Source of the DNA: Elusimicrobiota bacterium
GTDB lineage: Bacteria; Elusimicrobiota; Elusimicrobia; UBA1565
Length of the DNA stretch: 64,000 nucleotides
Direction: 5' to 3'
Assembly: GCA_043827405.1 (NCBI GenBank)
Contig: JBDRPD010000053.1
Span: 64,001-128,000 of the forward strand
In this document: piece after piece, positions 12,412 through 36,430 of the stretch
Numbering within the stretch: position 1 is the stretch's first letter
Layout of the letters: the number at the start of each line of letters is the position of its first letter
Translations under genes and position numbers: made by a program
The notes under the pieces: model-generated
What the model was told of the DNA's origin: nothing
What the model saw: only the letters and a program-made list of their open reading frames with translations
The model's database searches: none

Positions 12412-12420
12412 CGTTAAAGC

Positions 12421-20785: not shown

Positions 20786-21466
20786 ATGAATATCACCTGC
20801 AAATCCTGTGCCGCAGAGCTAAACCTGCCGGACGACAAGATCCCCCAGAACATTCCCCGCATCACCGTAAAGTGCCCGAAGTGCCAGCAGCCGATCGTGA
20901 TCGAGTTCAATAAGCCGGCCGCCCAAGCGCCCGCGGCCGCGCCGCCCACTGAGGATATCCCTCAGCCGGCCGCCCCGCCGCCGCCCGCCGAGCCCCCGCC
21001 GGAAGAGGAGTTCGACGAAATCGAAGGCCTCGCGGAAGGCGACCGCCTGGCCATGGTCTGCTTTGACGACTCCGCGGCCCGGGACGCGGCAAAGAAGGCG
21101 CTGGAGAACCTTGCGTATGCCGTGCACACCCCCGCCAAGCCGGCGGAGGGAGTCTTCTGGCTGCGGCGCTATAAATACGAGGTCGTCCTCGTCCACCGCG
21201 ACTATGGCGGCTCGGAAGCGGAGAATCCGGTGCTGCGGTACCTGCGGCCGCTGGCGATGTTGCACCGCCGGGAAATGTGCGTCGGGCTGGTCGGCAAGGA
21301 CATAAAGACCCTCGACAATATGACGGCTTTCGCCAAGAGCGCGAACTTTGTCATCGCCGAGGGAGACCTGGAAAAGCTCGAGGATATCACGCGCAAGACC
21401 GTGGCGGATAACGACAAGTTCTATCGACCATTCAAAGAAGCGCTGCGTGAAGCGGGCAAGGTTTAG
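20786..21466 (+). CDS. MJ0042-type zinc-ribbon protein with C-terminal receiver-like domain
   Basis: CKSC…CPKC N-terminal finger, Pro-rich linker, alpha/beta C-terminal domain; follows the pilT pair. Confidence 0.7.
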   Translation: MNITCKSCAAELNLPDDKIPQNIPRITVKCPKCQQPIVIEFNKPAAQAPAAAPPTEDIPQPAAPPPPAEPPPEEEFDEIEGLAEGDRLAMVCFDDSAARDAAKKALENLAYAVHTPAKPAEGVFWLRRYKYEVVLVHRDYGGSEAENPVLRYLRPLAMLHRREMCVGLVGKDIKTLDNMTAFAKSANFVIAEGDLEKLEDITRKTVADNDKFYRPFKEALREAGKV

Positions 21467-21477
21467 CCAAGGATAAT

Positions 21478-22305
21478 ATGCTGTTTGTCGACAAGCTCAA
21501 GCTCCTAAAAGCCATCCCCATGCTGCACCGCCTCCCGGACCGGCAGCTCACGACTCTGGGCGGATTTCTGCGGCCCCGCGAGCTCAAGCACGGCGAGGTC
21601 CTGTTTCAGGAAGGCTCCATGGGGATGAGCCTGTATTTCGTATCGCGCGGCCAGATCCGGATCTCGATGCACGTCGCCGGCGATGAGCACCAGGACCTGG
21701 CGTTCTTCAACCCCGGAATCCTGTTCGGCGAGGCGGCGCTGATCGATAAGTCCACCCGCAGCGCGAGCGCCAGCGCCGTCGGCGACACGCTGCTGTTCGA
21801 GCTCTTCCGCGGAGACCTGGACCGCTGGGCCAAACAGAACCCGCAGCATGCGGTGCAGTTCTTCGCCGAGCTGGTGCACGTCCAGTCGACACGCCTGCGC
21901 CGGACCTCGACCGAGCTCACTTTACACTCGGTGCTGGCGAACCTTATGCTCGACGACAGCGAGTCCGAGCAGGAGTTCATGGCCAAGGTCATCGACGGCA
22001 TTCTGCCGCACCTGGAAGACGGGTGGTCGGCGGCGGCGCAGCTGGACGGTCAAGCCCTGGTCTCGCAGGGCGGCTTCGATTTCACGCCGGTCGCCGAACA
22101 GCTCGGCGAGACCGTGGCCAAGGGCGGCGCCTGGTACGATGACTCGACCTACCATGTCACGCTGCTGGGGGGCGGGGACGTTCTCGGCCGCCTGATCTTC
22201 CATGCGCCCGCCGTGCTGCAGAAAGAGGATCAGGACGAAATCGGCCGGACGCTGAGCGGCGCTTCGCGCATGGTTTCGATCGCGCTCCGAGCCCGGCGGC
22301 CCTGA
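21478..22305 (+). CDS. Cyclic nucleotide-binding domain protein
   Basis: LFQEG…LYFVSRGQI…FGEAALI…RSASA cNMP motif; no evident C-terminal HTH. Confidence 0.8.
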   Translation: MLFVDKLKLLKAIPMLHRLPDRQLTTLGGFLRPRELKHGEVLFQEGSMGMSLYFVSRGQIRISMHVAGDEHQDLAFFNPGILFGEAALIDKSTRSASASAVGDTLLFELFRGDLDRWAKQNPQHAVQFFAELVHVQSTRLRRTSTELTLHSVLANLMLDDSESEQEFMAKVIDGILPHLEDGWSAAAQLDGQALVSQGGFDFTPVAEQLGETVAKGGAWYDDSTYHVTLLGGGDVLGRLIFHAPAVLQKEDQDEIGRTLSGASRMVSIALRARRP

Positions 22306-22313
22306 CCGGCGTC

Positions 22314-22970
22314 GTGAGCGTCAAGCTCCCCCCAAAACGCGCCGCCCTATTCGACCTGGACGGAACCTTGGTCGACACCGAACCCATTCACTGCGCGAGC
22401 ACCAACCGCGTCCTTGAGCCGCTCGGCGCCCGCATGACCTACGAGGAAACGTTCCAGTATATCGGCTGGTCCGAGATACCCTTCTGGGAGGACCTCGTCC
22501 GCCGCTTCAACCTGCGCGTCGATCCCCATGAGCTCAAAGCCCGCCGCTCCGCGGCCTATATCGAGCTGATAGGGAGCGGCAGGCTTGAGCCGCTGCCGGG
22601 CGCACGGGAGCTGCTGCGAGCCTGCCGCGCCGCCGGGATGCCCTGCGCCATCGCCTCCTCCTCGCCGCGCGAACAGATCGCGGCGAATTTACGGGCCTCC
22701 GGACTGGCCGACTTCTTCCAGGCGACGATCTCCGGACATGACGATGTCGAGCGCGGCAAGCCCCATCCGGACATCTACCTGGCGGCGGCCGCCGCCGTCG
22801 GCGTCGCCGCCGCGGAGGCGGTAGCCTTCGAGGACACGGTGACCGGGGTGCGTTCCGCGAGCGCGGCCGGCTGTCTGGTCGTTCTCATCCCCCGGCCCTA
22901 CACCGGCGGGTTGGAAGGGCTCCAGCCGGACTTCGCGGTCGCAAGCCTCGCGGATATCGAGCTCGGCTAA
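22314..22970 (+). CDS. HAD-superfamily phosphatase (beta-PGM-like)
   Basis: FDLDGTLVD, ASSS, GKPHPDIY, FEDT. Confidence 0.9.
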   Translation: MSVKLPPKRAALFDLDGTLVDTEPIHCASTNRVLEPLGARMTYEETFQYIGWSEIPFWEDLVRRFNLRVDPHELKARRSAAYIELIGSGRLEPLPGARELLRACRAAGMPCAIASSSPREQIAANLRASGLADFFQATISGHDDVERGKPHPDIYLAAAAAVGVAAAEAVAFEDTVTGVRSASAAGCLVVLIPRPYTGGLEGLQPDFAVASLADIELG

Positions 22971-24382
22971 TCCCGCCCTGCGGCGGGACCGTCCGCCGTC
23001 AGCGCCCGGTAAACATTCTCCGCCATGATCTCGTAGCCGGCGGGAGTTAGATGGTCGTTATCCTCGAGATAGGCTTCCCGTCCGCCCTTTTCGAGCAGTC
23101 CCGCGAAGTGCTTCCGGTTGTCCACCAGCATGAGACCATGCTTGCGTGCGACCTCCGCGAGCACCCGGTTGGCGCTCTTGTACTCTACCGGATAGTTCTG
23201 CAGCACGACCCGGATGCCGCGCTCCCGGCTCAGGCGGACGATCTCGTCCCAGGCCTCCATGCGCCGGCGGTCGACGTAGCGATCCATAGCGTCGCGATCG
23301 GACAGGTATTTGCGGAAGTTAACGAACATCCCGTTGCCCAGCAGGCCGGGATGCTTGGCGGCGCCCGCATCGAGAACCCGCAGCACATCCTCGGCCGTAT
23401 ACTTGCTCTGCAGCTGATAGGTCTGCACGAAGAAGTAGCTCGCCGTATCGAACTCCGGCGTCCAGAACGCCGCGGGGAACTTCTCCGCCATATCCAGCAG
23501 CAGCGCGAAGAACTTGTCGTAGCGCGCTCGCGGCGTATAAACGACGCTCGCATAGTCGGCCAGAAACGAGGCGAAGTCGGCGGCCGAGCGCATATCCAAA
23601 TCGTCATGCGACGTCTCCTCCCGCGAGAAGGCCTGATGGATCTCGTCCACCAGCGCGGGCGCGAGCGGCTTGGCCTGATCCCCGCCCATGTCCCGCGTAT
23701 GCGCGGCGTAGACCCCCAGCAGGGTCGCGAGCCGCTTCTCCATGGACAACCCCTCTTCCTCGCCGTCCGCGTCCGCGCCGTAGCGCGCCAGCCAGCTCAA
23801 TTTGATGTGACGCCAAACTTTGTACAGGCGCAAAGTATAGACCCAGCCCGCCGGCAGCACATCCGCCCAAGAGGTGTCGTCGGCCGTCATCTTCTTCTCC
23901 ACCAGCGGCAGGTTGAATAAATCAGCGGCGCCGACGAGCACCACGATGGTATCCGGACCCCGGCCCTCCGGGTTTTCCGCCAAATAGCGCTTGAGCTTGG
24001 CCGCCACGCCGAAGGTGCTCTCTTCGCATTTCGCGATATTGTAAACCGCCGCGCGCGCGCCGGAGTCGGCGAAGCGCCGGTAGAGATAGTAGGGGTAGCT
24101 GTGGTAGCTTTTGACGTTGCCGGCATTGGTCAATGAATCGCCGAAGGTCAGGATCAGGCGGCCCCGGCCGCGGCCGTCGCGGTAGCGCTCGAACGCCGAA
24201 TCCGAATCGGCGATGGCGTCATCATACGGCGGGGTAAACGCCGCCGTCCGGCCGGCGGTCACGGCATAGCCGGCGGCGCGCAGGCCGAGCTCCAGCAGCG
24301 TCAAGCTCAGCAGCAGGCTGACGAAGAAAATCCCGAGCTTTACGGCCGGGGAATCCCGATATTTGGAAATCAGCTTCTTCAC
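22967..24382 (-). CDS. Membrane-anchored SGNH/GDSL-family protein (paralog 5)
   Basis: GTG start at 24382 (VKKLISKYRDSPAVKL aligns with the paralog N-termini); GDSLT, NIAKCEESTFG, VGAAD, DNDH. Confidence 0.8.
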   Translation of the reverse strand: MKKLISKYRDSPAVKLGIFFVSLLLSLTLLELGLRAAGYAVTAGRTAAFTPPYDDAIADSDSAFERYRDGRGRGRLILTFGDSLTNAGNVKSYHSYPYYLYRRFADSGARAAVYNIAKCEESTFGVAAKLKRYLAENPEGRGPDTIVVLVGAADLFNLPLVEKKMTADDTSWADVLPAGWVYTLRLYKVWRHIKLSWLARYGADADGEEEGLSMEKRLATLLGVYAAHTRDMGGDQAKPLAPALVDEIHQAFSREETSHDDLDMRSAADFASFLADYASVVYTPRARYDKFFALLLDMAEKFPAAFWTPEFDTASYFFVQTYQLQSKYTAEDVLRVLDAGAAKHPGLLGNGMFVNFRKYLSDRDAMDRYVDRRRMEAWDEIVRLSRERGIRVVLQNYPVEYKSANRVLAEVARKHGLMLVDNRKHFAGLLEKGGREAYLEDNDHLTPAGYEIMAENVYRALTADGPAAGRD

Positions 24383-24423
24383 AGGAACGGAGTCCGACGC
24401 CGACTTATTGTATCCTATCGCTG

Positions 24424-25230
24424 ATGCGACCGCCAACGAAGCTCAAGACCGCCGCCGCCTGCGCCCTGGCCGTCCTGCTGCTCGGCGCCTGCGGCCGGAC
24501 GCAGGAAGAGCTCACCCGGGACCTCTACGAAGCCGCGGCGGTCGGCGATGCCGAGGACGTGCGCCGTCTGCTGCGCAAAAATCCGGCGCTGGCCAAAGGC
24601 TCCGATATCGTTTTCACCCGCAAGTCCCCTCTGCACGTGGCGAGCGAGCGCGAGGTGGTAACGGCGCTGCTGGAAGCCGGCGCCGACATCAACGCGGTCG
24701 ACGTCATGGGGCTGACGCCGCTGCATACGGCCAAGCGGCCCGAGATCGTCGACATCCTGATCGCGGCGGGCGCCGACGTGAAGGCGCAGGGAGCGGTCGG
24801 CGCGACGCCGCTGCATATGGCGACTTTCCCCAATGTCGCCCAAGCCCTGCTGAAGCACGGCGCCGACATCGAGGCGATGTCGCGGGACCGCGGCACCCCG
24901 CTCTACTCGCAGACGCTCGACGGCCGCTTCAGCATCGTCGAGATGCTGCTGCATGACGGCGCGGACGTCGCGCGCGCCGAGCCGTCCAGCGGGCGCACGC
25001 CCCTGCACGCCGCCGCCGCCGCGGGCTCCACGGATATCGTCGAACTGCTGCTGCGCTCCCGCGCCGACATCAACGCCAAGGACAAGGCCGGAGATACCCC
25101 GCTATGCGCCGCCGTTCGCGGCGACCAGCTCTTCACCGCCCGCCTGCTGCTGAATAAGGGCGCGCGGAAAGGGCAAGCGGGCGAGCTCGCGAAAAGCCCG
25201 GAGATGAAGCGGCTCTTCGGCGCCAAATGA
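24424..25230 (+). CDS. Ankyrin-repeat lipoprotein
   Basis: Lipobox LLGAC; repeated TPLH…GADVN/GADIN ankyrin units; stop overlaps the next ATG. Confidence 0.88.
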   Translation: MRPPTKLKTAAACALAVLLLGACGRTQEELTRDLYEAAAVGDAEDVRRLLRKNPALAKGSDIVFTRKSPLHVASEREVVTALLEAGADINAVDVMGLTPLHTAKRPEIVDILIAAGADVKAQGAVGATPLHMATFPNVAQALLKHGADIEAMSRDRGTPLYSQTLDGRFSIVEMLLHDGADVARAEPSSGRTPLHAAAAAGSTDIVELLLRSRADINAKDKAGDTPLCAAVRGDQLFTARLLLNKGARKGQAGELAKSPEMKRLFGAK

Positions 25231-27332
25231 GATTCGCCGCGCTCTTGGCGCTGCTGCTCGCCGGTCCCGCCGCGGCGGGAGAACTCGCGCCGCTGCCGCC
25301 CGTACCGGAGCTGGACAGCGCAGAGGTCGCGCTCGGCCGCACGCTGTTTTTCGACTTCCGCCTCTCCGGCGACGCCACCACGGCCTGCTCGATGTGCCAC
25401 AACCCGGACTATGCCTACACCGACGGCCTGGAGCTGTCCGAAGGCTATCCTTCGACGCTGTATTTCCGCAATACCCCCACCACCTTTAATACGAGCTTCA
25501 AACAGCACCTGTACTGGGACGGCCGCTTCCCCGCCAGCGACCTTAATTCGGTAATCCGGGACCATCTATCCGAGGCGCATTTCATGCAGGCGGACGGACG
25601 GCTGCTGGTCGAGCGCCTGCGGCAAATCCCGGATTACGTCCGTGACTTTCAAAATGTCTACGGCGGCGAGCCGGACTACGGCAAGCTGCTCAAGGCCCTG
25701 ACGGCCTTCGTCAACTCGCAGGTCTCCAAGGATGTTCCGCTCGACCGCTATCTTAAGGGCGACAAAGGAGCGCTCAGCGCGCCGGCGAAGCGCGGCCTGG
25801 AATTATTCAGCGGCAAGGGCGGCTGCATCCGCTGCCATTCCGGCCCCCTGCTCTCCGACGGAAAATTCCATGACCGCAAGGTCCCGGACAATCCCGAAAT
25901 CATTCGCTCGCCCCGGCGGCAGATCGTCTTCCGGCGCTTTTTCCGCACGCTGGGCATCGTCGGCTACCAAAACCTCAAGCGGGATCTCGGCCTGTACGCC
26001 GTAACCAAGAAGCCGGAGGACACGGGGAAATTCAAAACCCCCAGCCTCCGCGAGGCCGCGCGCACCGCCCCGTACATGCATAACGGCTCGCTCAAGACGC
26101 TGGGCGAGGCGGTCGCTTTCGAGGGGCCGGAACTCAGCGCCGGCGAGCGCGAGGACGTAGTGGAGTTCATTAAGGCGCTCAGCGGGAGCGCGGAGCCGGA
26201 CGAACGGCCGCGGGTGCCCTCCTATGCGGCGCTGCCCCTGGAAGAAGCCGCTCGCCCCCCCGCGCCGCCGGCCGCCGCGCCGAAGAAGAAAAAGCCGGCG
26301 CCGCTGGCCCCCCTGCCGCCCGTCCCCGTACCGCCGGACAATCCGCAGACCCCCGCCAAGGTGGAGCTCGGACAGATGCTCTTCTTCGACACCCGCATAT
26401 CGGGCAACCGCGAGAACTCCTGCGCCACCTGCCACAACCCTGAAGCCGGGTGGGGCGACGGCTACGATATCGCGCATGGCTACCTCGGAGCGCAGCATTG
26501 GCGCAACTCACAGACTTTGCTCAACTCGGCCTATTACGCCAAGCTGGAATGGGACGGCGGCCGGACTACGCTCGAGGAGCAGGCGCGCGGAGCGATCCTA
26601 TCCAACATTAACGCCAACGGCGATCCGGCGATGATCGAGGAGCGTCTCGCGCAGGCCCCGATCTACGTGGAGAAGTTCCGAGCGGTCTTCGGCACGGACC
26701 GGCCGCATTTCGAGGATATGATCAAAGCCATCGCCGCCTTCGAACGCGCCGCGCCCGTTTCGCGGGACACTCCTTTCGACGCCTACCTGCGGGGGGACAA
26801 GCGGGCGCTCACGCCGGAAGCCCGCCGCGGTCTGCGGCTGTTCAAGGGCAAGGCCGGCTGCTTCCGCTGCCATAACGGCCCCTTGCTGTCGGACGAGGAC
26901 TACCACGCCACCGGCGTCCCGGACAATCCGGCCTTCCGCCGGGATCCGCTCAAACAGATCACCATGCGCTACATTCTGGCTTCGCAGGGCGTGCCGGAGG
27001 ACTTCTACCGCACGGCGGCAAGGGATCCCGGACTGTACCTGATCACCAAGCGCGAACACGACATCGGGAAGTTCCGCACCCCGAGCCTGCGCGAGCTCAA
27101 GCACACGGCGCCCTATATGCATAACGGCGTCTTTGCGACGCTGCGCAATGTGTTAGACTTTTACGATCGCGGCGGCGGGGATTTCGCCGGCAAGACGCCC
27201 CTGTTGCTGCCGCTGCGTCTTACGGACAAGGAGAAAACGGACCTCGTCGCCTTTCTCGAGTCGCTCAGCGGCGAACCCGTGCTGGTCAAGGCGCCCGAGC
27301 TTCCCGGCTATCCGGGCTCGACGCATAAATAG
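25227..27332 (+). CDS. Tandem di-heme cytochrome c peroxidase (two CCP/MauG units fused; IdrP1-P2-like)
   Basis: Signal peptide; two units, each with LG..LFFD.R.SG, CxxCH, RN(T/S), WDG, second CxxCH, F(K/R)TPSLR, APYMHNG; hemes CSMCH, CIRCH, CATCH, CFRCH; Pro/Ala/Lys linker. Confidence 0.9.
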   Translation: MRFAALLALLLAGPAAAGELAPLPPVPELDSAEVALGRTLFFDFRLSGDATTACSMCHNPDYAYTDGLELSEGYPSTLYFRNTPTTFNTSFKQHLYWDGRFPASDLNSVIRDHLSEAHFMQADGRLLVERLRQIPDYVRDFQNVYGGEPDYGKLLKALTAFVNSQVSKDVPLDRYLKGDKGALSAPAKRGLELFSGKGGCIRCHSGPLLSDGKFHDRKVPDNPEIIRSPRRQIVFRRFFRTLGIVGYQNLKRDLGLYAVTKKPEDTGKFKTPSLREAARTAPYMHNGSLKTLGEAVAFEGPELSAGEREDVVEFIKALSGSAEPDERPRVPSYAALPLEEAARPPAPPAAAPKKKKPAPLAPLPPVPVPPDNPQTPAKVELGQMLFFDTRISGNRENSCATCHNPEAGWGDGYDIAHGYLGAQHWRNSQTLLNSAYYAKLEWDGGRTTLEEQARGAILSNINANGDPAMIEERLAQAPIYVEKFRAVFGTDRPHFEDMIKAIAAFERAAPVSRDTPFDAYLRGDKRALTPEARRGLRLFKGKAGCFRCHNGPLLSDEDYHATGVPDNPAFRRDPLKQITMRYILASQGVPEDFYRTAARDPGLYLITKREHDIGKFRTPSLRELKHTAPYMHNGVFATLRNVLDFYDRGGGDFAGKTPLLLPLRLTDKEKTDLVAFLESLSGEPVLVKAPELPGYPGSTHK

Positions 27333-27344
27333 CGGCAGCATACG

Positions 27345-30098
27345 ATGTCATTAGAGAAGACCGTCACTCCACCGCCCGACTACGTCCCCGCGGAACGCGT
27401 CCCGCTGCCGCCGCCGGACGCCCGGGTCCGCACCACGGTCTGCGACTACTGCGTGGTCGGCTGCGGCTACCGGACCTATGTTTGGCCCGAAGGCCGCGAG
27501 GGCGGCCCGCGGGCGAAGGACAACGCCTTCGGCGTGGACTTTCCCGTCGCGCCGCTGTCCGGCTACTGGGTCACGCCGAACCAGCACACGATCGTGCTGG
27601 TCGGGGGCGAACCCCACCACGCGATCGTCATCCCCGACCCGAAGGCGAAAGTCGTCAACCGCGGCGGCAACCATTCGGTGCGCGGCGGCGCGATCGCGCA
27701 GAAGTGCTACAGCCCCCGCAAGCCGACCCGCGACCGCCTCAAGCACCCGCTGCTGCGCGTCGACGGCAAGCTGGTCCCCGTCTCCTGGGATGCGGCCATC
27801 CGGGTGATGGCGGAGGTGTCCAAGCACGTGCTCGCCAAGCACGGCGAGATATCCTGGGGCATGAAGACCTTTTCGTACCAGTCTTTCGAAAGCATGTACG
27901 CGATCTCGAAGCTCTGCTTCGAATCGATCAAGACGCCCGCTTTCTCCACCCATGACGCGCCGACCGTCGGCGACGAGTCCGCCGGGCTGACCGACTCGGG
28001 CTACCAGACCTTCGGCGCCTCCTACGACGATCTCGCGCAGGCCGAGGTCCTGTTCATCTCCGGCGTCGATCCGTACGAGACCAAGACCGTGCTCTTCACC
28101 GAATGGCTGCGCCCTCCGGCGCACCGGACCGGCCGCAAAGGTCCGAAGATGATTATCGCGGCGCCGCGCCGGACCATGGGCGTCGCCTACGCCGAAAAGG
28201 ACGGCGGGCTGTGGCTGGACGTCAATCCCGGCACCGACACGCTGCTGCACCTGGCCGTCATCCGCTACATCTTCGACCAAGGCTGGGAAGACGCGGAGTT
28301 CCTCAAGGAACATACCGCGAGCGACTGGGAGATCCAATCCGGCTTCGGCCGCGGAACCCGCAACACGCCCTGGCAGTGGCGCACGACCTGGAGCAAGTAC
28401 GGGACGGATTACCTCGGCTACCGCAAGTGGATCCTGAACTATCGTCCCGCCGGCCTGGCGCAGGCGGCGCGCGTCACGGGGATCAGCGAGGAGAAGATTA
28501 TCCGGGCCGCCAAGATGCTGACCGGAGGAGGAGGCCGGCGGCCGAAGTCCTCTTTCGTCTACGAGAAGGGCAACTACTGGACCAACAACTACACCAACAC
28601 CACCTCCTACGCCGCGCTGGCGATCGTCAACGGCGCCGGCCACCGCGCCGGGCGCGTCGTCTGCCGCCTCGGCGGCCATCAGCGCGGCTGGGCGGCCAAG
28701 GCGGCCCCCTATCCCCTGGTCATGAGCCCGGAACGTCTGGCCGGCCGCCGCAAGAAGCCGCTCGATCTGGACCGCTGGGTGGAGTCCGGACGCCTGCGCT
28801 TCGCCTGGGTGATCGGCGCCACCTGGATCCAGGCCATGGCCGCGTCCGATGAGCTCAAGCGGAAATTCCTCGAGCTGACCCGCGGCAGCGAGCACCAGAT
28901 CCGCGCCGCGGACCCGGAGCACGCCGCCGCCGCCCTGATCAAACGGGTGGACGCCGGCGGCATGTTCGTGGTGGACCAGGACGTCTACCTGCGCGAGCCG
29001 ATCGGTTCCGATATCGCCGACCTGGTGCTGCCGGCCGCCGGCTGGGGCGAGAGCGACTTCGCCCGGGCCAACGGCGAGCGACGCCTGCGCCTGTATTCCA
29101 AATTCTACGACCCTCCGGGCGAGGCGCTGCCCGACTGGGAGATCATCGCCCGCTTCGGCCGGGCCATGGGCTTCGAAGACTATAAATGGAGCTCGTCCAA
29201 CGACCTCTTCGAAGAGGCCGCGCGCTTCAGCCGCGACGACATGCTGAACTACTACCCCTTGGTATGGTACGCCAAGGAGATCGGCAAGCCCGCGCATGAG
29301 GTCCTGCGCGAAATGGGGACGACGGGAATCCAGCTGCCCGCCCGCTACCGCTCGCACGCCACCGAAGGCCGGGCCTACATCGAGTACGCCGGGTCCTACT
29401 CCTCGCCCAAGCACCCGGGCATCGTCGTCGGGACCAAGCGCCTGCACGACCCCGAGACCGACTTCGGCACGCCGGAAGGACCGACCACGCATCCGAAGTG
29501 GCTGCGCGTCTTCCAGACGCACAGCGGCAAGGTGCTCCTCCACAAGTCGCCCTGGGAAACCTTCTCCGATTTTTACGCGGCGGTGCGGCCGCAGCAGGAC
29601 GAGCTGTGGGTCACCAGCGGCCGCATCAACGAGAAGTGGCAGTCGGGCTACGACGACCAGCGCCGGCCCTACTCGCTCATGCGCTGGCCCGACAGCTTCA
29701 TCGAACTGCACCCCCGGGACGCCGCCGCGCGCGGCATCGAGAGCGGCGACTATATCGAGGCGTCTTCCGACGACGTGCTCGTCCAGACGGGCGGCTTCGT
29801 GGGCCGCCGCCCCGATGACCTGACCTTCTCCGCGCTGGAGCGCGAAGGCCATATCCGGCGCGGGCGCGGAAGCTTCCGGGCGGTCGCGATCGTGACCGAC
29901 GACATCAAGCCGGGAGTGGCCTTCTCCTACTCCGATTGGCCTACCCAGCCGGCCAACGCCTTGTCGCCGCGGGTGCCCGACCCGATCACCAACCACTACC
30001 GCTTCAAGCTGGGCAAGGGCCGCATCCGCCGGATCGGCGAGTCGCCCTACAAGAAATCGCTGCGCAGCATGACCTTTCTGCCGAGGACCATCATCTAG
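27345..30098 (+). CDS. idrA: AioA-like DMSO-reductase-family molybdoenzyme large subunit, probable iodate reductase IdrA
   Basis: VPLPP; C33-X2-C36-X3-C40-X70-S111 [3Fe-4S] motif (CDYCVVGCGY…HSVRGG); YEKGNYW; RLGGHQRG; ANGERRLRLY; no signal peptide. Family call is firm; IdrA rather than AioA rests on motifs and gene context. Confidence 0.75.
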   Translation: MSLEKTVTPPPDYVPAERVPLPPPDARVRTTVCDYCVVGCGYRTYVWPEGREGGPRAKDNAFGVDFPVAPLSGYWVTPNQHTIVLVGGEPHHAIVIPDPKAKVVNRGGNHSVRGGAIAQKCYSPRKPTRDRLKHPLLRVDGKLVPVSWDAAIRVMAEVSKHVLAKHGEISWGMKTFSYQSFESMYAISKLCFESIKTPAFSTHDAPTVGDESAGLTDSGYQTFGASYDDLAQAEVLFISGVDPYETKTVLFTEWLRPPAHRTGRKGPKMIIAAPRRTMGVAYAEKDGGLWLDVNPGTDTLLHLAVIRYIFDQGWEDAEFLKEHTASDWEIQSGFGRGTRNTPWQWRTTWSKYGTDYLGYRKWILNYRPAGLAQAARVTGISEEKIIRAAKMLTGGGGRRPKSSFVYEKGNYWTNNYTNTTSYAALAIVNGAGHRAGRVVCRLGGHQRGWAAKAAPYPLVMSPERLAGRRKKPLDLDRWVESGRLRFAWVIGATWIQAMAASDELKRKFLELTRGSEHQIRAADPEHAAAALIKRVDAGGMFVVDQDVYLREPIGSDIADLVLPAAGWGESDFARANGERRLRLYSKFYDPPGEALPDWEIIARFGRAMGFEDYKWSSSNDLFEEAARFSRDDMLNYYPLVWYAKEIGKPAHEVLREMGTTGIQLPARYRSHATEGRAYIEYAGSYSSPKHPGIVVGTKRLHDPETDFGTPEGPTTHPKWLRVFQTHSGKVLLHKSPWETFSDFYAAVRPQQDELWVTSGRINEKWQSGYDDQRRPYSLMRWPDSFIELHPRDAAARGIESGDYIEASSDDVLVQTGGFVGRRPDDLTFSALEREGHIRRGRGSFRAVAIVTDDIKPGVAFSYSDWPTQPANALSPRVPDPITNHYRFKLGKGRIRRIGESPYKKSLRSMTFLPRTII

Positions 30099-30100
30099 CC

Positions 30101-30634
30101 ATGGCCGACGACCAACCCTGTTTCAGCCGGCGCCGCTTCCTGCTCGGCAGCGGCTCGACCATGGTCACCATTCTGCTGTCCAGCCTCCCGGGTATGGCGC
30201 ATGCCAAGGGAGTGCTCAAGCTGCGCCGGACCGGCTATCCGCGGACGAAGATCGGCCGCATCAGCCTGCTCGAAAAGGGCCGGCCGGTATTCTTCAAGTA
30301 CCCGGGCCAGCATGCCCACTGCGCCTTCATGCTGGTACGGCTGGGCCGCGAGGCGGCGGGCGGCGTCGGCCCGGACCAGGACATCGTCGCCTTCAGCCGG
30401 CTATGCGCCCACATGGGGGCGCCGCTCGACGGATTCCGCGAGGAGCATTCCACTCTCGGCCCCTGCGCCGAGCACCTCACCGTTTTCGACCTGCGGCGCC
30501 ACGGCATGGTGGTCTCCGGCCACGCCACCGAGACTTTGCCGCAGGCGGTCCTGGAAACCGACGGCGACGACATCTACGCCGTGGGCGTGCTCGGCCTCAT
30601 CTACGGCTTCCACGACAACCAGGACGCGCTCTGA
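30101..30634 (+). CDS. idrB: Tat-exported Rieske [2Fe-2S] small subunit (AioB/IdrB-like)
   Basis: ATG at 30101; twin-arginine SRRRFLL; GGVGPDQDIVAF; CAHMG and GPCAEH ligand boxes; GLIYG C-terminus. Confidence 0.78.
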   Translation: MADDQPCFSRRRFLLGSGSTMVTILLSSLPGMAHAKGVLKLRRTGYPRTKIGRISLLEKGRPVFFKYPGQHAHCAFMLVRLGREAAGGVGPDQDIVAFSRLCAHMGAPLDGFREEHSTLGPCAEHLTVFDLRRHGMVVSGHATETLPQAVLETDGDDIYAVGVLGLIYGFHDNQDAL

Positions 30635-30646
30635 ACGCGCGCGGCA

Positions 30647-31393
30647 TCAGCCCCAACCGGGCAGGCCCTCGCGGGACGCTATCGCCGCCAGGCTCCGGAC
30701 ATAGTCCGTTTTGTTGAGCTCCGCCGGCGCGCCGATCGCGGCCTCCAGCCGCTCGTCGAAAGGGACCGCACCTAGAAATGGGACCTTAAGCCGTGCGCAC
30801 TCCCTCTCGACAAATAAGGCGGAAGACGGCATCCGCATATTCTCGAGCACGCCGATCATGCCCGCATGCAGCTCCTGAAACATGCGGATGGTCTTTTCGA
30901 CCGTCGCGAAAGCCACTTTGGACGGCACCGTCACCAAGACGGACTCCGCCCGCCGCATCAAGCGCAGCACGTCCAGCGCCGCGTCGCTAAGGCCCGGCGG
31001 CATATCGACGATCAGAACGTCGAGCTTGCCCCACTGCGTGATAGCCAAAAGTTCAATAATGGCGTTGGAGATATCGCTCCCGCGCAGAGGCGACGGCTGC
31101 TCGCCGGTAAACATAACCAGCGACAGGAAGCGGATGCCCGCGACCTCCGGCGGCACGATGCCCCGCTCTTCCTCGGGAAAAACTCCCCGGGCGCCCAGGA
31201 TGACGTGCTGGGAGGGGCCGCTCAAGTCCAGGTCCAGCAGACCGACTTTTCGTCCCGCCGCAGAAAGCGCCAGCGCCAGCCCGGAAGACGTGACGCTCTT
31301 GCCGACGCCGCCCTTGCCGCCGGTAACGGCCAGTATTCTGCCGATTCCCGACAGCCGGTCGCTGATAACGCTCAAGCGGGGATCAATGTTCAT
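30647..31393 (-). CDS. Mrp/MinD-family ATPase, probable ATP-type HypB
   Basis: GGKGGVGKS deviant Walker A, DLDLSGPS, DMPPG, ENM; lacks the ApbC CxxC; directly downstream of hypA. Confidence 0.75.
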   Translation of the reverse strand: MNIDPRLSVISDRLSGIGRILAVTGGKGGVGKSVTSSGLALALSAAGRKVGLLDLDLSGPSQHVILGARGVFPEEERGIVPPEVAGIRFLSLVMFTGEQPSPLRGSDISNAIIELLAITQWGKLDVLIVDMPPGLSDAALDVLRLMRRAESVLVTVPSKVAFATVEKTIRMFQELHAGMIGVLENMRMPSSALFVERECARLKVPFLGAVPFDERLEAAIGAPAELNKTDYVRSLAAIASREGLPGWG

Positions 31394-31394
31394 A

Positions 31395-31805
31395 TCATTC
31401 GACCTCGACTTCGTCCAGCCATACCCCGCGTCCCCGCGTCACCTCGAAATCGGGACTCCCGCACTGCAGGCAGCGGACATAGCTGTGCGCCACCTCCGGA
31501 ACGAAGTGGACATACTCCGCCTCTTCTTCCGTGAGCTTCTTTTTCGTCTCCGCGAACAGCCACTCCTTGCCGCAGGCCCGGCATTTAAATGCTGCGTCCT
31601 CTTGAGAGATATCGATGCCGGCCGCGCCGATCGCCGCTTCATGCGTGCCCATCACGGTTTTAAGCCCCATCCGGAAAGCTTCCATATCCATCTGCTGCAG
31701 CTCACCGACCCGCAGCCGAATCCCGGTAATCCGGCGGTAGCCGCCCTTCTTCATTTCATTTAAAGCGGAGACGACCACGCCTTCCGCCAATGCCCACTCG
31801 TGCAT
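31395..31805 (-). CDS. hypA: Hydrogenase nickel incorporation protein HypA
   Basis: MHE N-terminus, VGELQ, CRAC and CLQC zinc pairs, GRG. Confidence 0.92.
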   Translation of the reverse strand: MHEWALAEGVVVSALNEMKKGGYRRITGIRLRVGELQQMDMEAFRMGLKTVMGTHEAAIGAAGIDISQEDAAFKCRACGKEWLFAETKKKLTEEEAEYVHFVPEVAHSYVRCLQCGSPDFEVTRGRGVWLDEVEVE

Positions 31806-31820
31806 TCGACCTCCCGGCGC

Positions 31821-32831
31821 CTAACAAATTCTGGGGAACTGATCCCCGACCAGCATGTCGAGTATGCGCCGCCCCCCCACCGTCGTCCGCAGCAGGACCC
31901 TGCCCGCGGACTCTCCGCTGACCTCGCCGACGACAGCCGCTGCGGCGCCCAGCGGGTGCGCCCGCAGGAGCCGCAGCGCGCGCTCCGCGCCGCCGGGATC
32001 GACGACCAGGACCATTTTCCCTTCGTTCGCTATGTAGAGAGGATCGTAGCCCAGCAGCTCGCAGAACGCGCGGACGGAATCGCTTACCGGCACGGCGGAC
32101 TCATCGACGACTATCCCGAAGTCCCGCCCTTCGGCGGCCTCATTGAGCACCGTGGCCAGCCCCCCCCGCGTCGCATCACGCATGAAGCGGACTCCGCAGT
32201 CTGCGTCCAAAACAGGCTGCACCAAGCTCCACAGCGGAGCGCAGTCGGAGCGCAGACCTTTGAGCCCCATTTGGTGCCGTCGCGACAGCACGGCAGCGCC
32301 GTGGTCGCCGACGGTCCCGTTGATGAGGATCCGGTCGCCGGCGCGAATCCCCTCCGGCCCCAGCGCGGAGCGCCGTCCGAGCTCGCCGACGCCCGCAGTG
32401 TTGATAAAGAGGCGGTCGACGCCGCCGCGCTCCACCACCTTGGTATCGCCGGTCACGATGCGGACTTCCGCCTCCCGCGCCGTCTCGCCCACCGAGCGCA
32501 GGATGCTCCGCAGAAAATCAAACTCCAGCCCCTCTTCAATGACGAGCCCCAGCGACAGGTACCGCGGCGTCGCTCCCGCGGCGGCGAGGTCGTTGACCGT
32601 ACCGCAGACCGCCAGCCGGCCGATATCCCCGCCGGGAAATACCGCGGGGCTCACCGTATAGGTATCGGTGGTGAAGGCGAGACGTCCGGGAGCCGGCTCG
32701 ATCTCGGCGGAGTCCCCCAGCCGCCGCAGAATCGGATCAGGCAGAGCGCGGACGATCTCGCCCACCAGCTCATGCGAGAGCCGGCCGCCGCTGCCGTGCG
32801 CCAAGAGAATCCGCTCAGTTTTCCCGGCCAT
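31821..32831 (-). CDS. hypE: Hydrogenase maturation protein HypE
   Basis: HGSGG, FTTD, GDTKVV, RDATRGG, ANEGK, C-terminal PRIC. Confidence 0.96.
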   Translation of the reverse strand: MAGKTERILLAHGSGGRLSHELVGEIVRALPDPILRRLGDSAEIEPAPGRLAFTTDTYTVSPAVFPGGDIGRLAVCGTVNDLAAAGATPRYLSLGLVIEEGLEFDFLRSILRSVGETAREAEVRIVTGDTKVVERGGVDRLFINTAGVGELGRRSALGPEGIRAGDRILINGTVGDHGAAVLSRRHQMGLKGLRSDCAPLWSLVQPVLDADCGVRFMRDATRGGLATVLNEAAEGRDFGIVVDESAVPVSDSVRAFCELLGYDPLYIANEGKMVLVVDPGGAERALRLLRAHPLGAAAAVVGEVSGESAGRVLLRTTVGGRRILDMLVGDQFPRIC

Positions 32832-33906
32832 ACTTGTAATACGCCGCGCAGGTCCCTTCGCTTGAAACCATGCATGCCCCGACGGGCGCGAGCGGAGTGC
32901 ATACGCCGGCGAAGAGCGGGCAGTCCGGAGGCTTGCGCACCCCTTTGAGAATATCTCCGCACATGCAGCCGGAATCAGTCCGCTCGGCTTCGACCTCGAC
33001 TTCGATTCCCTGCTCCGCGTCGAAAGCCGCGAACTCCGGGCGCAGCGCGAGCCCGCTCCCGGGAATCACGCCGATCCCCCGCCATGCCGCGTCGCATGGC
33101 TGGAAGACCCGGCTCATCGCCGCCATCGCTTTAGGGTTGCCCTCGGGCCGCACGCTCCGCTTATAGGCGTTCTCCAGCTCGCTGCCGCCGGAAACGACCT
33201 GCCGCGCCAAAGAGAGGACGCCGCGCGCGATATCCAACGGCTCGAAACCCGCGACCGCGCAGGGGATATTGAACTCCGAGGCGAGAAATCCGTAGGGCGC
33301 CGTACCGATAATAGTGCTCACATGCCCGGGCAGCAGCAGCCCCTGCACGCGGATATCCGGATCCTGCGCCAGCGCCCGCAGCGCGGGCGGCACGAGCTTA
33401 TGCCCGCTGTAGACGAAATAGTTCGTCAGTCCGGCATCATGGGCCGCGATGACCGACGCCGCCACGCTCGGCGTCGTCGTCTCGAAACCGACGCCCAGAA
33501 AAACGACTTTTTTACCGGGGTTCTCACGCGCGATCGCCGTCGACTCCAGCGCCGAGTAAACGGTGCGCACGTCCGCCCCCGCCGCCCGCTCCTGCTCCAG
33601 GCTCGACGACGAGCCCGGAACGCGGTACATGTCGCCGAAGGTGACCACGATCACGTCCGGCCGCCGGCAGAAAGCGATCGCGCGGTCCATATAGCCGTTG
33701 GCGGTAACGCACACCGGGCAGCCCGGGCCCGAGAGAAGCTCCAGCTGCCGCGGGAAAATCTGCCGCAGACCGCTGCGAAACAGCGCCACCGTATGCGTTC
33801 CGCAGACCTCCATCAGGACCGCGGACTTGCCGTCGAGCGCCTCGGCGATCAGCCGGACCGCAGCCTGCACCGCATCCGCCTGACGGTACTCGTCAAGAAA
33901 CTTCAT
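32815..33906 (-). CDS. hypD: Hydrogenase maturation protein HypD
   Basis: MEVCGTHT, GPGCPVC, GFETT, PGHVS, CMVSSEGTC. Confidence 0.96.
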   Translation of the reverse strand: MKFLDEYRQADAVQAAVRLIAEALDGKSAVLMEVCGTHTVALFRSGLRQIFPRQLELLSGPGCPVCVTANGYMDRAIAFCRRPDVIVVTFGDMYRVPGSSSSLEQERAAGADVRTVYSALESTAIARENPGKKVVFLGVGFETTTPSVAASVIAAHDAGLTNYFVYSGHKLVPPALRALAQDPDIRVQGLLLPGHVSTIIGTAPYGFLASEFNIPCAVAGFEPLDIARGVLSLARQVVSGGSELENAYKRSVRPEGNPKAMAAMSRVFQPCDAAWRGIGVIPGSGLALRPEFAAFDAEQGIEVEVEAERTDSGCMCGDILKGVRKPPDCPLFAGVCTPLAPVGACMVSSEGTCAAYYKYGREN

Positions 33907-34133
33907 GCGCTTTCCTCAGCGTCTCCCGTCAACCGCTGAATCAGCTTGCGGTCTTCCGCCGCCTGCTCCCGATCCAATTTCTGGATGGCAAAACCGGCAT
34001 GCACGATCACGTATTCTCCCGGTTGGGGATCATCCACCAGGTCCAGGCGGACATCCTTCTCAACCCCGCCCATACGGACCGTTCCGACCTCGCCGTTCAC
34101 GGCGACCAGCTCCATAGGAATCGCAAGACACAT
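33903..34133 (-). CDS. hypC: Hydrogenase chaperone HypC
   Basis: MCLAIP N-terminus, VIVHAGFAI. Confidence 0.96.
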   Translation of the reverse strand: MCLAIPMELVAVNGEVGTVRMGGVEKDVRLDLVDDPQPGEYVIVHAGFAIQKLDREQAAEDRKLIQRLTGDAEESA

Positions 34134-34138
34134 ATTTA

Positions 34139-36430
34139 TTAATCCGCAAATAATCCGGCGGCCATCACCTGGCCCAAGCAGATACCCCCGTCATTGGGCG
34201 GCACTTGCCGGTGCATCAGCACGCGAAAGCCGGCTTCCTCCAAACGACGCGAGCTCCATTCTAACAAAAGCGCGTTCTGGAACACGCCGCCGGTCAGGGC
34301 CGCCGTCTCCAGGCCGGTTTCGTCGCGCACCGCGCAGCATGCGGCGGCCGTCATATCGGCGACCGCGGCATGAAACCGCGAAGACATGATATCCGGCGCC
34401 GCGCCGCGCCGCAGGTCCTCGACGACGGCCCGCACCATGGGCACGGGATCAAGGACCAGCAGCCCTTCCGCTTTCTCCAGCGCATAGGGATACGCCCCTT
34501 CCTCCCCCGCGGCGGCCGCCTCCAGCTCAATTGCCGCCTGGCCCTCATAGCGTATCTCGCGGCGCAGGCCGATAATCGCCGCGACCGCGTCAAACAGGCG
34601 GCCCATGCTCGAAGTCAGCGGGCTGTTAAGGTTCCGGTCGATCATCTTGTCGAGCACCGCCCATTTATCCCGGTCGAGCTTGCGCACAAAATCGATATCC
34701 AGCTCCAGGAATTCCGCGCCGAACGCTTCGCGCAGCCACACCGCGCCCATGCGCCACACCTCACGCACCGCCGCGTCGCCGCCCGGCAGCGGGACCGTCC
34801 GGAGACGCGCCGCCCGCCGGTATCCCTTGAAGTCCGCGGCCAGCAGTTCACCCCCCCAGACCGTCGCATCGTCGCCGCGGCCGGCGCCGTCGAAGACCAC
34901 GCCGATGACCGTCTGCGACACCCCGTTGTCCGCCATACAGGAGGCGACATGCGCATGGTGATGCTGCACCTTAACGAGCTCAGCGTCCGGCAGCCGCGCG
35001 CACAGCTTTTCCGCGTACTGCGTGGAGAGGTAATCCGGGTGCAGGTCGCAGGCGATGCGGCGCGGCTTAATGGTCAATAGCCGCGCCAGATGATCTACCC
35101 CTCGCTCGAATGCGTCAAGCGTCTCCAGGTTCTTCAGGTCGCCGATGTGATGGCTCAGATAGGCGTCGGACCCGCGTCCCAAGCAGAAGACGCTTTTAAG
35201 CTCGCCCCCGCAGGCGAGGACCGGCTCCTTGAGCGTCCCCGGCAGGCGGATGGGCGCCGGAGCATAGCCCCGGGAGCGGCGGAGCAGGCGCTCCTCTCCG
35301 CGAAAAACGCGACTCACCGAATCGTCGCACCGCGTTTCGATGCCGCGATCATGCAGCACAAACGCATCCGCGATCCCTCCCAGCCGCGCCAGAGCTTCTT
35401 CGTTAATATGAGCTATCGGCTCGTCGCTGACATTCCCGCTCGTCATGACCAGGACTTCCGGGCAGCCGCCGGCGAACAGCAGCGAATGCAGCGGCGCATA
35501 CGGGAGCATGCAGCCCAAGCGCTTCTGCCGCGGCGCGACCGACGGCGCCAGCGCCGCCGCCTCTACCCGCTCCAGCAGCACGATCGGCCGGGCGACCGAC
35601 TCAAGGAGAGCGGCCTCCTCGCGGCTTACGCGGCAGCAGCGCCGCACCGCGGCGGCAGCGCCGGCCATCACGGCGAAGGGCTTGTCTTCCCGGTACTTGC
35701 GGCCGCGCAATGCGCCGACGGCGCGCTCGTCAAACGCGCTGCAGGCGAGATGGAAGCCCCCGATCCCCTTCACCGCGAGGATATTGCCGTCGCGCAACAG
35801 CGCCGCAGCCCGAGCCACGATTTCAAGGGAATCGCCCTCGATGACCGGTCGGCCGGCGGCATCCGTAAGCCGCAGCCGCGGTCCGCAAACGGCGCAGGCA
35901 TTGGGCTGCGCATGGAAGCGGCGGTTTTCCGGGTCCTCGTACTCGGCGAGGCATTCCGGACACATGTGAAACGACGCCATAGCGGTCGCCGGACGGTCGT
36001 AGGGAACGCTGCGCACTATGGTAAAGCGCGGGCCGCAGTTGGTGCAGTTCAGGAAGGGGTAGCCGCGGCGCCGGTCGGCGGGATCGGCGAGCTCCCGCAA
36101 GCACTCCCCGCACGTCGCGAGATCGGGGGAAACATCGGCCAGCGCCTGCGCCGAGCCGGTGCTGGGCAGGATGCGGAAGTCCTCATCCTCAGCCGGCTCA
36201 ACCTCCCGGGAGGTCAACGACTTGATGCTCGCCTGCGGCGGCGGCTCAAGCTCGAGCACGCGCAGAAATTCCTGCACCTTCGCGGGGGGGCCCTGCACCT
36301 CGATGCGGACCCCGTCGGAGGTATTGCTGATCCAGCCGCGCAGGCCGCGCCTCCGGGCCTGCCGGTACACGGCGGGCCGGAAACCGACTCCCTGTACGCG
36401 TCCGCGTACCTCGATGCGCAGCCGCTTCAT
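34139..36430 (-). CDS. hypF: Carbamoyltransferase HypF
   Basis: GRVQGVGFRP acylphosphatase domain, zinc fingers, KGIGGFH, HHHAH, PPNDGG. Confidence 0.96.
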   Translation of the reverse strand: MKRLRIEVRGRVQGVGFRPAVYRQARRRGLRGWISNTSDGVRIEVQGPPAKVQEFLRVLELEPPPQASIKSLTSREVEPAEDEDFRILPSTGSAQALADVSPDLATCGECLRELADPADRRRGYPFLNCTNCGPRFTIVRSVPYDRPATAMASFHMCPECLAEYEDPENRRFHAQPNACAVCGPRLRLTDAAGRPVIEGDSLEIVARAAALLRDGNILAVKGIGGFHLACSAFDERAVGALRGRKYREDKPFAVMAGAAAAVRRCCRVSREEAALLESVARPIVLLERVEAAALAPSVAPRQKRLGCMLPYAPLHSLLFAGGCPEVLVMTSGNVSDEPIAHINEEALARLGGIADAFVLHDRGIETRCDDSVSRVFRGEERLLRRSRGYAPAPIRLPGTLKEPVLACGGELKSVFCLGRGSDAYLSHHIGDLKNLETLDAFERGVDHLARLLTIKPRRIACDLHPDYLSTQYAEKLCARLPDAELVKVQHHHAHVASCMADNGVSQTVIGVVFDGAGRGDDATVWGGELLAADFKGYRRAARLRTVPLPGGDAAVREVWRMGAVWLREAFGAEFLELDIDFVRKLDRDKWAVLDKMIDRNLNSPLTSSMGRLFDAVAAIIGLRREIRYEGQAAIELEAAAAGEEGAYPYALEKAEGLLVLDPVPMVRAVVEDLRRGAAPDIMSSRFHAAVADMTAAACCAVRDETGLETAALTGGVFQNALLLEWSSRRLEEAGFRVLMHRQVPPNDGGICLGQVMAAGLFAD

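Follow-up and report, generated by a model that had tools for sequence, protein, structure and literature searches.

We found that the stretch analysed here, 64,000 nucleotides corresponding to positions 64001-128000 of contig C53 in a genome of probable Elusimicrobiota origin (97.97% complete, 0.48% contaminated; hereafter the window), carries an operon of the known iodate-reductase (Idr) kind, in which genes for an ankyrin lipoprotein, a fused IdrP2-IdrP1 heme protein, the molybdenum (Mo) subunit IdrA and the Rieske subunit IdrB follow one another. What is new is the way in which this operon is arranged, together with a derived heme site and the private expansion that its heme module has undergone. 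We consider it likely, judging from sequence comparison, that the operon encodes a periplasmic dissimilatory iodate reductase with expanded oxidant handling, which was acquired by transfer within or into the Elusimicrobiota and then remodelled. An earlier note, made from the letters of this DNA, had described four packed plus-strand genes at 24424-30634, and all of these open reading frames were confirmed. Since its main function is a prediction made from a family already known, the locus is less striking than first thought. Statements attributed below to a cited paper refer to the accessible part of that paper.

Placement of the Mo subunit among IdrA proteins

The [3Fe-4S] motif of the Mo subunit is exact, as the earlier note had claimed (C33-X2-C36-X3-C40-X70-S111), and the other motifs that it listed are likewise in place (CDYC at 33, FSYQSFE at 176, HDAP at 203 and RLGGHQRG at 441); the AioA counterparts that it had quoted are present in the AioA of NT-26. 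The CX2CX3CX70S motif is given as an IdrA motif in PMC10149662, and in our sequence comparison it is common to AioA and IdrA and thus cannot tell them apart.

Overall identity and further signatures assign the protein to IdrA. It is 52% identical to the IdrA of Azonexus hydrophilus NCP973, a tested iodate respirer (PMC13455634), 52% to that of Roseovarius azorensis, a tested iodate reducer (PMC11445184), and 30-32% to six AioA proteins. The nearest named IdrA, at 66%, belongs to an Elusimicrobia metagenome-assembled genome (MAG; L025) in which the operon has the canonical P2-P1-B-A order. The cluster that contains OGH62377.1 is 61% identical and K23_9 is 59.5% identical; these two accessions appear in Fig. 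S1 of the supplement of PMC8692401, a paper that counts Planctomycetaceae and Ca. Lindowbacteria among the deep members of the IdrA clade. Furthermore, the protein shares with the tested enzymes, and not with the six AioA, a TFSY stretch without the GGAG insert, HD-x-P, the GFGRGTRNTPWQWRTTW insertion and EKGNYW-x-NN. Its N-terminus, read by eye, has neither a twin-arginine translocation (Tat) motif nor a hydrophobic stretch.

We collected 67 rows for the phylogeny of 27345-30098 that the earlier note had proposed, and built two trees from them, a quick one of 30 rows and a bootstrapped one of 20, with no mixture model and without the "unknown clade" of PMC8692401 (Halorubrum, Dehalococcoidia). 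All IdrA-like rows, including the query, form one clade (100/100) with the NCP973 and R. azorensis enzymes and apart from AioA, and an approximately unbiased (AU) test rejects the grouping of the query with AioA (p = 0.00127). The inner branching of the IdrA clade was not settled by these trees, in which the subclade of the query has five rows. An AF2 model of the subunit (pLDDT 85) finds AioA as its best match in the PDB (TM about 0.75-0.83), where a sequence search returned no IdrA structure. Collectively, the identities, the signatures, the clade and the AU test bear out the proposal of the earlier note that this is an Idr-family operon and not an arsenite oxidase.

Rieske subunit and gene order

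IdrB has a Tat motif (SRRRFL) and a Rieske motif of the form C-x-H-x17-C-x2-H, the x17 spacing comparing with 17-20 in IdrB and 15 in two AioB. It is 61% identical to the IdrB of L025, 56% to that of NCP973 and 35-46% to AioB.

The earlier note had taken peroxidase genes upstream, instead of downstream, as unusual. This was wrong: the canonical idr operon is transcribed P2-P1-B-A, so that upstream peroxidases are the canonical state, and the name idrABP1P2 lists the genes in reverse. NCP973 is transcribed as P-P-B-A, idrP2,P1,B,A is given for SCT, IR-12 and M. iodofontis (PMC10989891), and PMC8692401 uses the conserved idr order as a criterion of membership.

The A-then-B order, which the note had also pointed out, does hold, and departs from both idr and aio. 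We compared 58 IdrA-like loci (37 from genomes, 3 from plasmids and 18 from metagenomes, several of them near-duplicates and many truncated), and found B-A in 52, A-B in none and no visible B in 6. Four of these six are truncated. Another is a full-length IdrA-like gene of a Planctomycetaceae MAG (L008, 58% identical), flanked on both sides by 8 kb that encode neither IdrB nor IdrP. The last (L079), whose IdrA is the closest with genomic context at 70% identity, has P directly before A and no match to B in the remaining 218 bases. Thus, within this subclade, B has moved from its position either repeatedly or before the two lineages diverged. The A-before-B arrangement is new among the idr loci compared. 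Another rearranged layout was seen in two Pirellulaceae loci (L010 and L019), where B-A is followed by two peroxidases 4-6 kb downstream.

A fused heme protein with a changed ligand

In trees, the N-terminal half of the heme protein groups with IdrP2 (support 95) and the C-terminal half with IdrP1 (99), which is the canonical P2-then-P1 order. The protein has a Sec-type N-terminus and four heme sites, and its AF2 model (pLDDT 94.2, pTM 0.92) is one compact unit. We considered the fusion itself as the novelty and rejected this, because P2 and P1 are fused in 4 of 40 IdrA-type loci and 138 of 8000 proteins scored against the fused protein pass a threshold of 1e-150.

The derived feature is found at the second heme. 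All canonical IdrP rows that we aligned have Tyr at the position of MauG Tyr294, which we take to be a distal heme ligand that supports high-valent chemistry, and all are without the Glu-Met motif of CcpA. The C half of the operon protein keeps this residue as Tyr646, which lines up with Tyr294 of MauG and the Tyr in 6e1c. In the N half, Glu299 replaces the Tyr and the loop after that position is gone, and so the pattern of a Tyr at the second-heme distal position of both IdrP units, as drawn from our own alignment and not from a published rule, is broken in the P2 half. Classical CcpA combines a distal Gln and Glu-Met at the peroxidatic heme with a Met ligand at the second heme; the operon protein has Val/Phe in the N half, Gln/Asn in the C half, and Glu or Tyr at the second-heme position.

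In the 121 fused homologs that we examined, the residue after the first motif is most often Tyr (96 proteins) or Glu (20), with Met (2), Gln (1) and His (2) making up the rest. A 47-row tree places the 23 rows with Glu, Met or Gln in a single clade (99), whose sister is the canonical pair of the Elusimicrobia MAG L025 (97). This clade splits into four stand-alone fusions that include the operon protein (99) and 19 rows of a WD40 type (99), which correspond to 15 full-length and 4 partial proteins. Separately, about 49 of the 121 homologs (among P0276-P0365, mostly 800-900 amino acids) have a fifth CxxCH, which is probably an added cytochrome c domain that serves as a built-in electron donor.

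The role of IdrP1 and IdrP2 is described as unclear in the accessible parts of PMC11445184 and PMC10149662, and a literature search, which covered papers outside subscription, found none linking IdrP1 with MauG and none of relevance on the tyrosine of MbnH, BthA and MauG in cytochrome c peroxidases or on fused idr genes.

A WD40-IdrP family in the same genome

The host genome contains 11 genes for secreted proteins in which a WD40 propeller is joined to an IdrP2-P1 tetraheme module, and the loss of Tyr in the P2 half is common to these and to the operon protein. Tree clade and ligand change thus tie the paralogs to the operon heme protein. They account for 44 of the 171 CxxCH motifs in the gene calls of the genome, and their heme parts show 52-62% identity to the operon protein. 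Among themselves the paralogs are 54-75% identical, with propellers that are 39-62% alike. All 10 tandem genes were checked, and 9 have a hydrophobic N-terminus as called.

A protein search (5.8 billion sequences; 8000 candidates scored, crowded by WD40 proteins) gave 15 full-length members among the 120 matches listed, comprising the 11 of the host and 4 from other metagenomes, two of which apparently lie on one 11.8-kb contig. In 60 relatives no gene of this type was found (highest score 214 bits, versus 647-926). In one relative (G019, L135:4908-6857), WD40 is fused to a single CCP of the ordinary kind, which may represent a host chassis for the WD40-IdrP family. Genomes of the same order (L129 in G034:C13; L130-L131 in G042:C13; L132-L134 in G041 and G034) have clusters of proteins of 340-890 amino acids with one diheme CCP-like unit plus extra domains. 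The same literature search found nothing on WD40 with cytochrome c peroxidase under the term Elusimicrobi.

The ankyrin lipoprotein

No ankyrin gene was found beside any of the 58 other idrA loci, for which flank lengths vary and many are truncated. The protein has a paralog in the host genome, on contig C87, and a homolog in 1 of 40 relatives, and for these reasons looks host-derived. A search of the ESM Atlas returned generic ankyrin clusters only. An ankyrin gene shares an operon with a catalase, a periplasmic heme enzyme acting on H2O2, in PMC10294975, and by analogy the lipoprotein is possibly an AnkB-like helper of the heme protein.

Host and supporting genes

The RpoB of the host genome is 65-78% identical to that of the MAG behind L025 ("uncultured Elusimicrobia bacterium") and 68-75% to that of a same-order genome, compared with 41-64% for Stieleria and Roseovarius. 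This placement, by RpoB identity to one named Elusimicrobia MAG and against two outgroups, points to a host that is probably an Elusimicrobiota member, as the earlier note had supposed, and Elusimicrobiota is thus a probable new host phylum for Idr. The clusters of 7 marker proteins of the host contained no named member. IdrA was found in none of 60 same-order genomes and none of 400 genomes of the phylum, the latter with two candidates scored per genome; both sets are samples. The string "Elusimicrob" was absent from the searched supplements of PMC8692401 and PMC13455634, and literature on iodate and Elusimicrobi, again outside subscription papers, consisted of titles on animal gut microbiota. 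The stretch is held by groundwater sequencing runs, and groundwater iodate respirers are known (PMC13455634, PMC10149662).

The description of the host as a fermentative anaerobe was not supported: the genome has NapA, an aa3-type oxidase, a cluster of the alternative complex III (ACIII) type and two cytochrome c assembly genes. In profile searches NapA and CoxB are over the cut-off and CoxA scores 663 versus 671 bits; the aa3-type oxidase adjoins the ACIII/Qrc-type cluster, which is quinol-oxidising. Respiring groundwater Elusimicrobia (lineage IV) have been described (10.1101/765248). The searches that the earlier note had suggested found moaA, moaC and moaE-, moeA- and mobA-like genes for the molybdenum cofactor on the same contig, and TatC. 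The search for chlorite dismutase (Cld) gave one PF06778 match on another contig, which we did not count as Cld since it is weak and partial (34.6 bits, model 5-106 of 189) with no evident signal peptide; in the accessible part of PMC8692401, only two of 145 idr genomes are reported to have cld.

Three further features of the genome were noted. Matches to the MoaA model number 36 radical SAM proteins, many in tandem (C74, C101, C3, C63 and others), and radical SAM suites have been described for groundwater Elusimicrobia. A napD-napA-tetraheme cytochrome group (C105:14638-20544) has as neighbours an ACR3 gene for arsenite efflux and a putative regulator that we assigned by eye to the ArsR type. 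A cluster of multiheme cytochromes with 10, 4, 11 and 19 CxxCH (C12:587-8837) is possibly a conduit for extracellular electron transfer.

Genomic setting and assembly

The features discussed here are collected in Table 1. The first two genes of the operon overlap by 4 nt, and the gaps are 12 nt between IdrP and A and 2 nt between A and B. Promoter scoring found a sigma70-like site (TTGGCG-18-TACAAT, 24436-24407) on the minus strand only; none was scored on the plus strand.

Table 1. Positions of the idr operon, its upstream gap and the WD40-IdrP genes (window coordinates unless a contig is named).
Feature	Position	Strand	Description
Ankyrin-repeat lipoprotein, operon gene 1	24424..25230	+	268 amino acids; Pfam Ank; N-terminal lipobox-like LGAC
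Fused IdrP2-IdrP1, double CCP_MauG, bCcP/MauG superfamily	25227..27332	+	701 amino acids; CxxCH at 54, 200, 399, 545
IdrA, Mo-bisPGD (bis-pyranopterin guanine dinucleotide) subunit	27345..30098	+	917 amino acids; TIGR02693 437.5 bits, cut-off 359
IdrB, Tat-exported Rieske [2Fe-2S] subunit, after idrA	30101..30634	+	ATG start; 177 amino acids; TIGR02694 121, cut-off 95.65
AT-richer short gap between SGNH gene (divergent; start per gene caller) and ankyrin start	24383..24423		Presumed shared promoter region
Ten WD40-IdrP genes in tandem	C53:31963-63154		Lies 25-56 kb ahead of the operon and stops 847 bases short of the window
Eleventh WD40-IdrP gene	C108:46811-49804		

We considered mis-assembly or mis-binning and found it unlikely. 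One Logan contig of groundwater run X1 covers 27072-35000 with 0 differing letters and spans the end of IdrP and the whole of A and B unchanged, and a second covers 21000-27098. Run X1 holds all sampled words and may be the source sample, so it is not independent; run X2, from another study of groundwater, holds 53% of the sampled words of the stretch; runs X3-X5 contain small shares and do not serve as evidence here. The only contig break falls in a repeat of at most 33 bp that is shared with paralogs and shorter than a read. The IdrP segments 5′ of the break are nearest to the stand-alone homolog P0262 (64% and 75%), and for the 70 residues after it P0262 and one paralog tie at 70%. Furthermore, both flanks (pilT-pilT-zinc finger-cNMP on one side and mrp-hypAECDF on the other) are matched in order in same-family genomes, with the flanking PilT proteins 79-86% identical; the same-family genomes that share these flanks have no idr beside them. 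There was likewise no sign of a recent island, and no tRNA or Rfam match was found. The operon has a GC content of 0.672 versus 0.633 for the genome, and a GC content at third codon positions of 0.83-0.91 versus a genome 5-95% range of 0.74-0.89.

Directly after idrB lies a convergent hydrogenase maturation block, mrp-hypA-hypE-hypD-hypC-hypF (30647-36430), syntenic in genome G003. Many apparent paralogs of the membrane-anchored SGNH/GDSL hydrolase, two of them Pfam-confirmed and three in tandem, flank the WD40 array and the operon (321-1703, 11014-15173 and 22967-24436 in the window; 307-1608 and 30662-31858 on C53); the host lineage seems inclined to tandem amplification of exported proteins. 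The window also contains an exported WD40/CARDB protein of 1520 amino acids with a C-terminal caspase (C14) domain (2736-7298).

Proposed mechanism and alternatives

IdrA is co-exported with IdrB, and electrons in Idr pass from the Rieske cluster through the [3Fe-4S] cluster to Mo. Reduction of IO3- yields HIO, from which iodide arises by disproportionation. The by-product H2O2 is thought to be removed by IdrP1 and IdrP2. IdrP1/P2 co-migrate with IdrAB in SCT and DN11 (PMC10149662).

On this model, IdrAB of the host would be exported by Tat through IdrB, would receive electrons from the quinol pool via the ACIII-type complex and c-type hemes, and would convert iodate through HIO to iodide. The fused IdrP may be bound to IdrAB, removing peroxide or relaying electrons. 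It would fold as a P2-P1 heterodimer in one chain, with a C half that presumably keeps a His/Tyr heme of the MauG/MbnH type. The Tyr-to-Glu change may retune or open one heme of the P2 half, plausibly the electron entry point, given that the operon has no gene for a small cytochrome c. By analogy with AnkB and catalase, the ankyrin lipoprotein might tether or mature the heme protein. Once the fusion had occurred and the Tyr was lost, one copy would have been joined to a secreted WD40 propeller and amplified to 11 genes, and these paralogs would most simply be a larger pool of proteins that deal with H2O2 or hypoiodous acid.

Several observations weigh against iodate respiration by this operon. 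The A-B order rests on one assembly, and none of the 32 pieces listed, with 1303 further pieces beyond them, bridges the A-B junction from an independent run. This order breaks the conserved P2-P1-B-A, the operon reading ank-P2P1-A-B, and there is no regulator or cytochrome c gene beside it, unlike in NCP973. No RNA run is among the listed runs holding the stretch. For Mo transport, neither ModA nor PF12849 was found in the approximately 98% complete genome. The tested IdrA that could be placed are all proteobacterial, and an Elusimicrobia subclade lying outside all other IdrA is not rejected (AU p = 0.43), so bracketing of the query by tested enzymes is not shown. Finally, the pocket reads HDAPTVGDE versus HDKCSATND in NCP973 and HDKPMRGPD in R. 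azorensis, and contains a Glu that aligns with that of AioA; this stretch is also variable among other IdrA.

The possible basal position, the HD-x-P loop without the Lys of both tested enzymes compared and the changed P2 heme ligand would also fit an enzyme of the IdrA clade whose main substrate is a different oxyanion, such as bromate, chlorate or antimonate. Its Elusimicrobiota lineage would possibly be early-branching, and IdrP would deal with the reactive intermediates. We regard this as improbable: for IdrAB with IdrP, iodate reduction is the only activity reported in the accessible parts of PMC8692401, PMC13455634, PMC11445184 and PMC10149662, and the IdrA of SAR324 and Vibrio type are likewise without this Lys, and an idr cluster from another SAR324 MAG reduced iodate in E. 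coli. Moreover, iodate reduction has been argued to be ancestral in the AioA/IdrA family (PMC10100899), which makes iodate a reasonable guess even for a basal subclade. If iodate is the substrate, its reduction could serve detoxification or redox balance under low oxygen and not growth, as in R. azorensis, which reduces iodate under static conditions without growing on it anaerobically (PMC11445184). The host has an aa3-type oxidase and NapA, and its operon lacks a quinol-oxidising or cytochrome c gene of its own, but the ACIII-type cluster and several multiheme cytochromes could supply the electrons, and we hold such a role, apart from growth, to be quite improbable.

The 12 to 1 ratio of IdrP-type modules to idrAB in the genome and the rearranged operon could suggest that idrAB is an unused relic and that the selected function is that of the IdrP-derived heme family. 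This is very improbable, as idrA and idrB are intact with their cofactor motifs kept, their end branches are like those of relatives (0.21-0.22) and the genes are spaced by 2-12 nt. That the enzyme is a divergent arsenite oxidase, as database labels say, is the least credible of the alternatives, and we reject it on the trees and motifs. TIGR02693 and TIGR02694 do score over their cut-offs, AioA is the nearest solved fold and an acr3 efflux gene lies elsewhere in the genome; these NCBIfam models, however, also label the tested, plasmid-borne IdrA of NCP973, the protein falls outside the AioA clade at about 30% identity, the AioA motifs HNRPAYNSE and GGHQEG are replaced, and peroxidases occur in 0 of 6 aio loci compared, where the order is aioB-aioA.

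Dissimilatory iodate reduction with expanded oxidant handling is accordingly the reading that we prefer. Beyond it, we raise a speculative and rather unlikely extension, that in one Elusimicrobiota lineage a fused IdrP2-P1 which had lost its Tyr ligand (to Glu, Met or Gln) left the operon and became the secreted WD40 tetraheme family, which oxidises iodide or bound substrates through a MauG-like high-valent heme while the propeller picks the target. If true, the cell would both make reactive iodine, by IdrAB, and use it, by the 11 paralogs. The IdrAB described here could also be the earliest-branching IdrA lineage, in which case it would be the best test case for the rise of iodate specificity from an AioA/IdrA ancestor.

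Comparison with known systems

These results extend predicted iodate respiration to groundwater Elusimicrobiota, which the second MAG (L025) supports, and bear on iodide enrichment in aquifers and on the mobility of radioiodine. Screens that require the canonical idr order will miss members such as this one. The single-chain P2-P1 with one ligand changed, together with 11 paralogs detached from IdrAB, is a natural experiment on the role of IdrP, and makes the question of its function testable. Our alignments add that IdrP proteins carry the MauG/MbnH-type Tyr and not the Met of CcpA.

Compared with the MauG/MbnH and CcpA-type proteins, the operon heme protein has the same fold and, in Tyr646, the MauG-type residue, and differs in being two units in one chain. 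The classical CcP has the Glu-Met motif, which both halves lack, as do all IdrP rows that we aligned, and the position of the CcpA-type Met is Glu in the N half. With ankyrin helpers of the AnkB/KatB type, the operon has in common that an ankyrin gene and a periplasmic heme enzyme are encoded together; the partner here is a c-type heme protein and not a catalase, and the likeness, which extends to generic ankyrin repeats, is one of analogy. AioBA (NT-26, Alcaligenes faecalis) shares the fold (TM by target 0.82-0.84), the [3Fe-4S] and Rieske centres and Tat export via the small subunit, whereas identity is about 30%, the pocket motifs are different, peroxidases are lacking and the order is B-A.

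The deep-branching IdrA of Planctomycetota, Ca. Lindowbacteria and NC10, which are predicted only in the accessible parts of PMC8692401 and PMC10989891, are 58-62% identical and fall in the same part of the tree, but their loci keep the B-A order and a Tyr in each P unit. The IdrABP1P2 systems of Azonexus hydrophilus NCP973, Roseovarius azorensis, Pseudomonas sp. SCT, Denitromonas IR-12 and Azoarcus DN11 have the same four components, including the [3Fe-4S] motif, the Tat-Rieske subunit and two diheme units, P2 then P1, with the peroxidase upstream of the Mo enzyme. The operon described here differs from them in having A before B, P2 fused to P1, Glu for Tyr in the P2 half, an ankyrin lipoprotein in front and no adjacent regulator or cytochrome c, and in residing, with 11 WD40-fused paralogs, in a host of Elusimicrobiota type.

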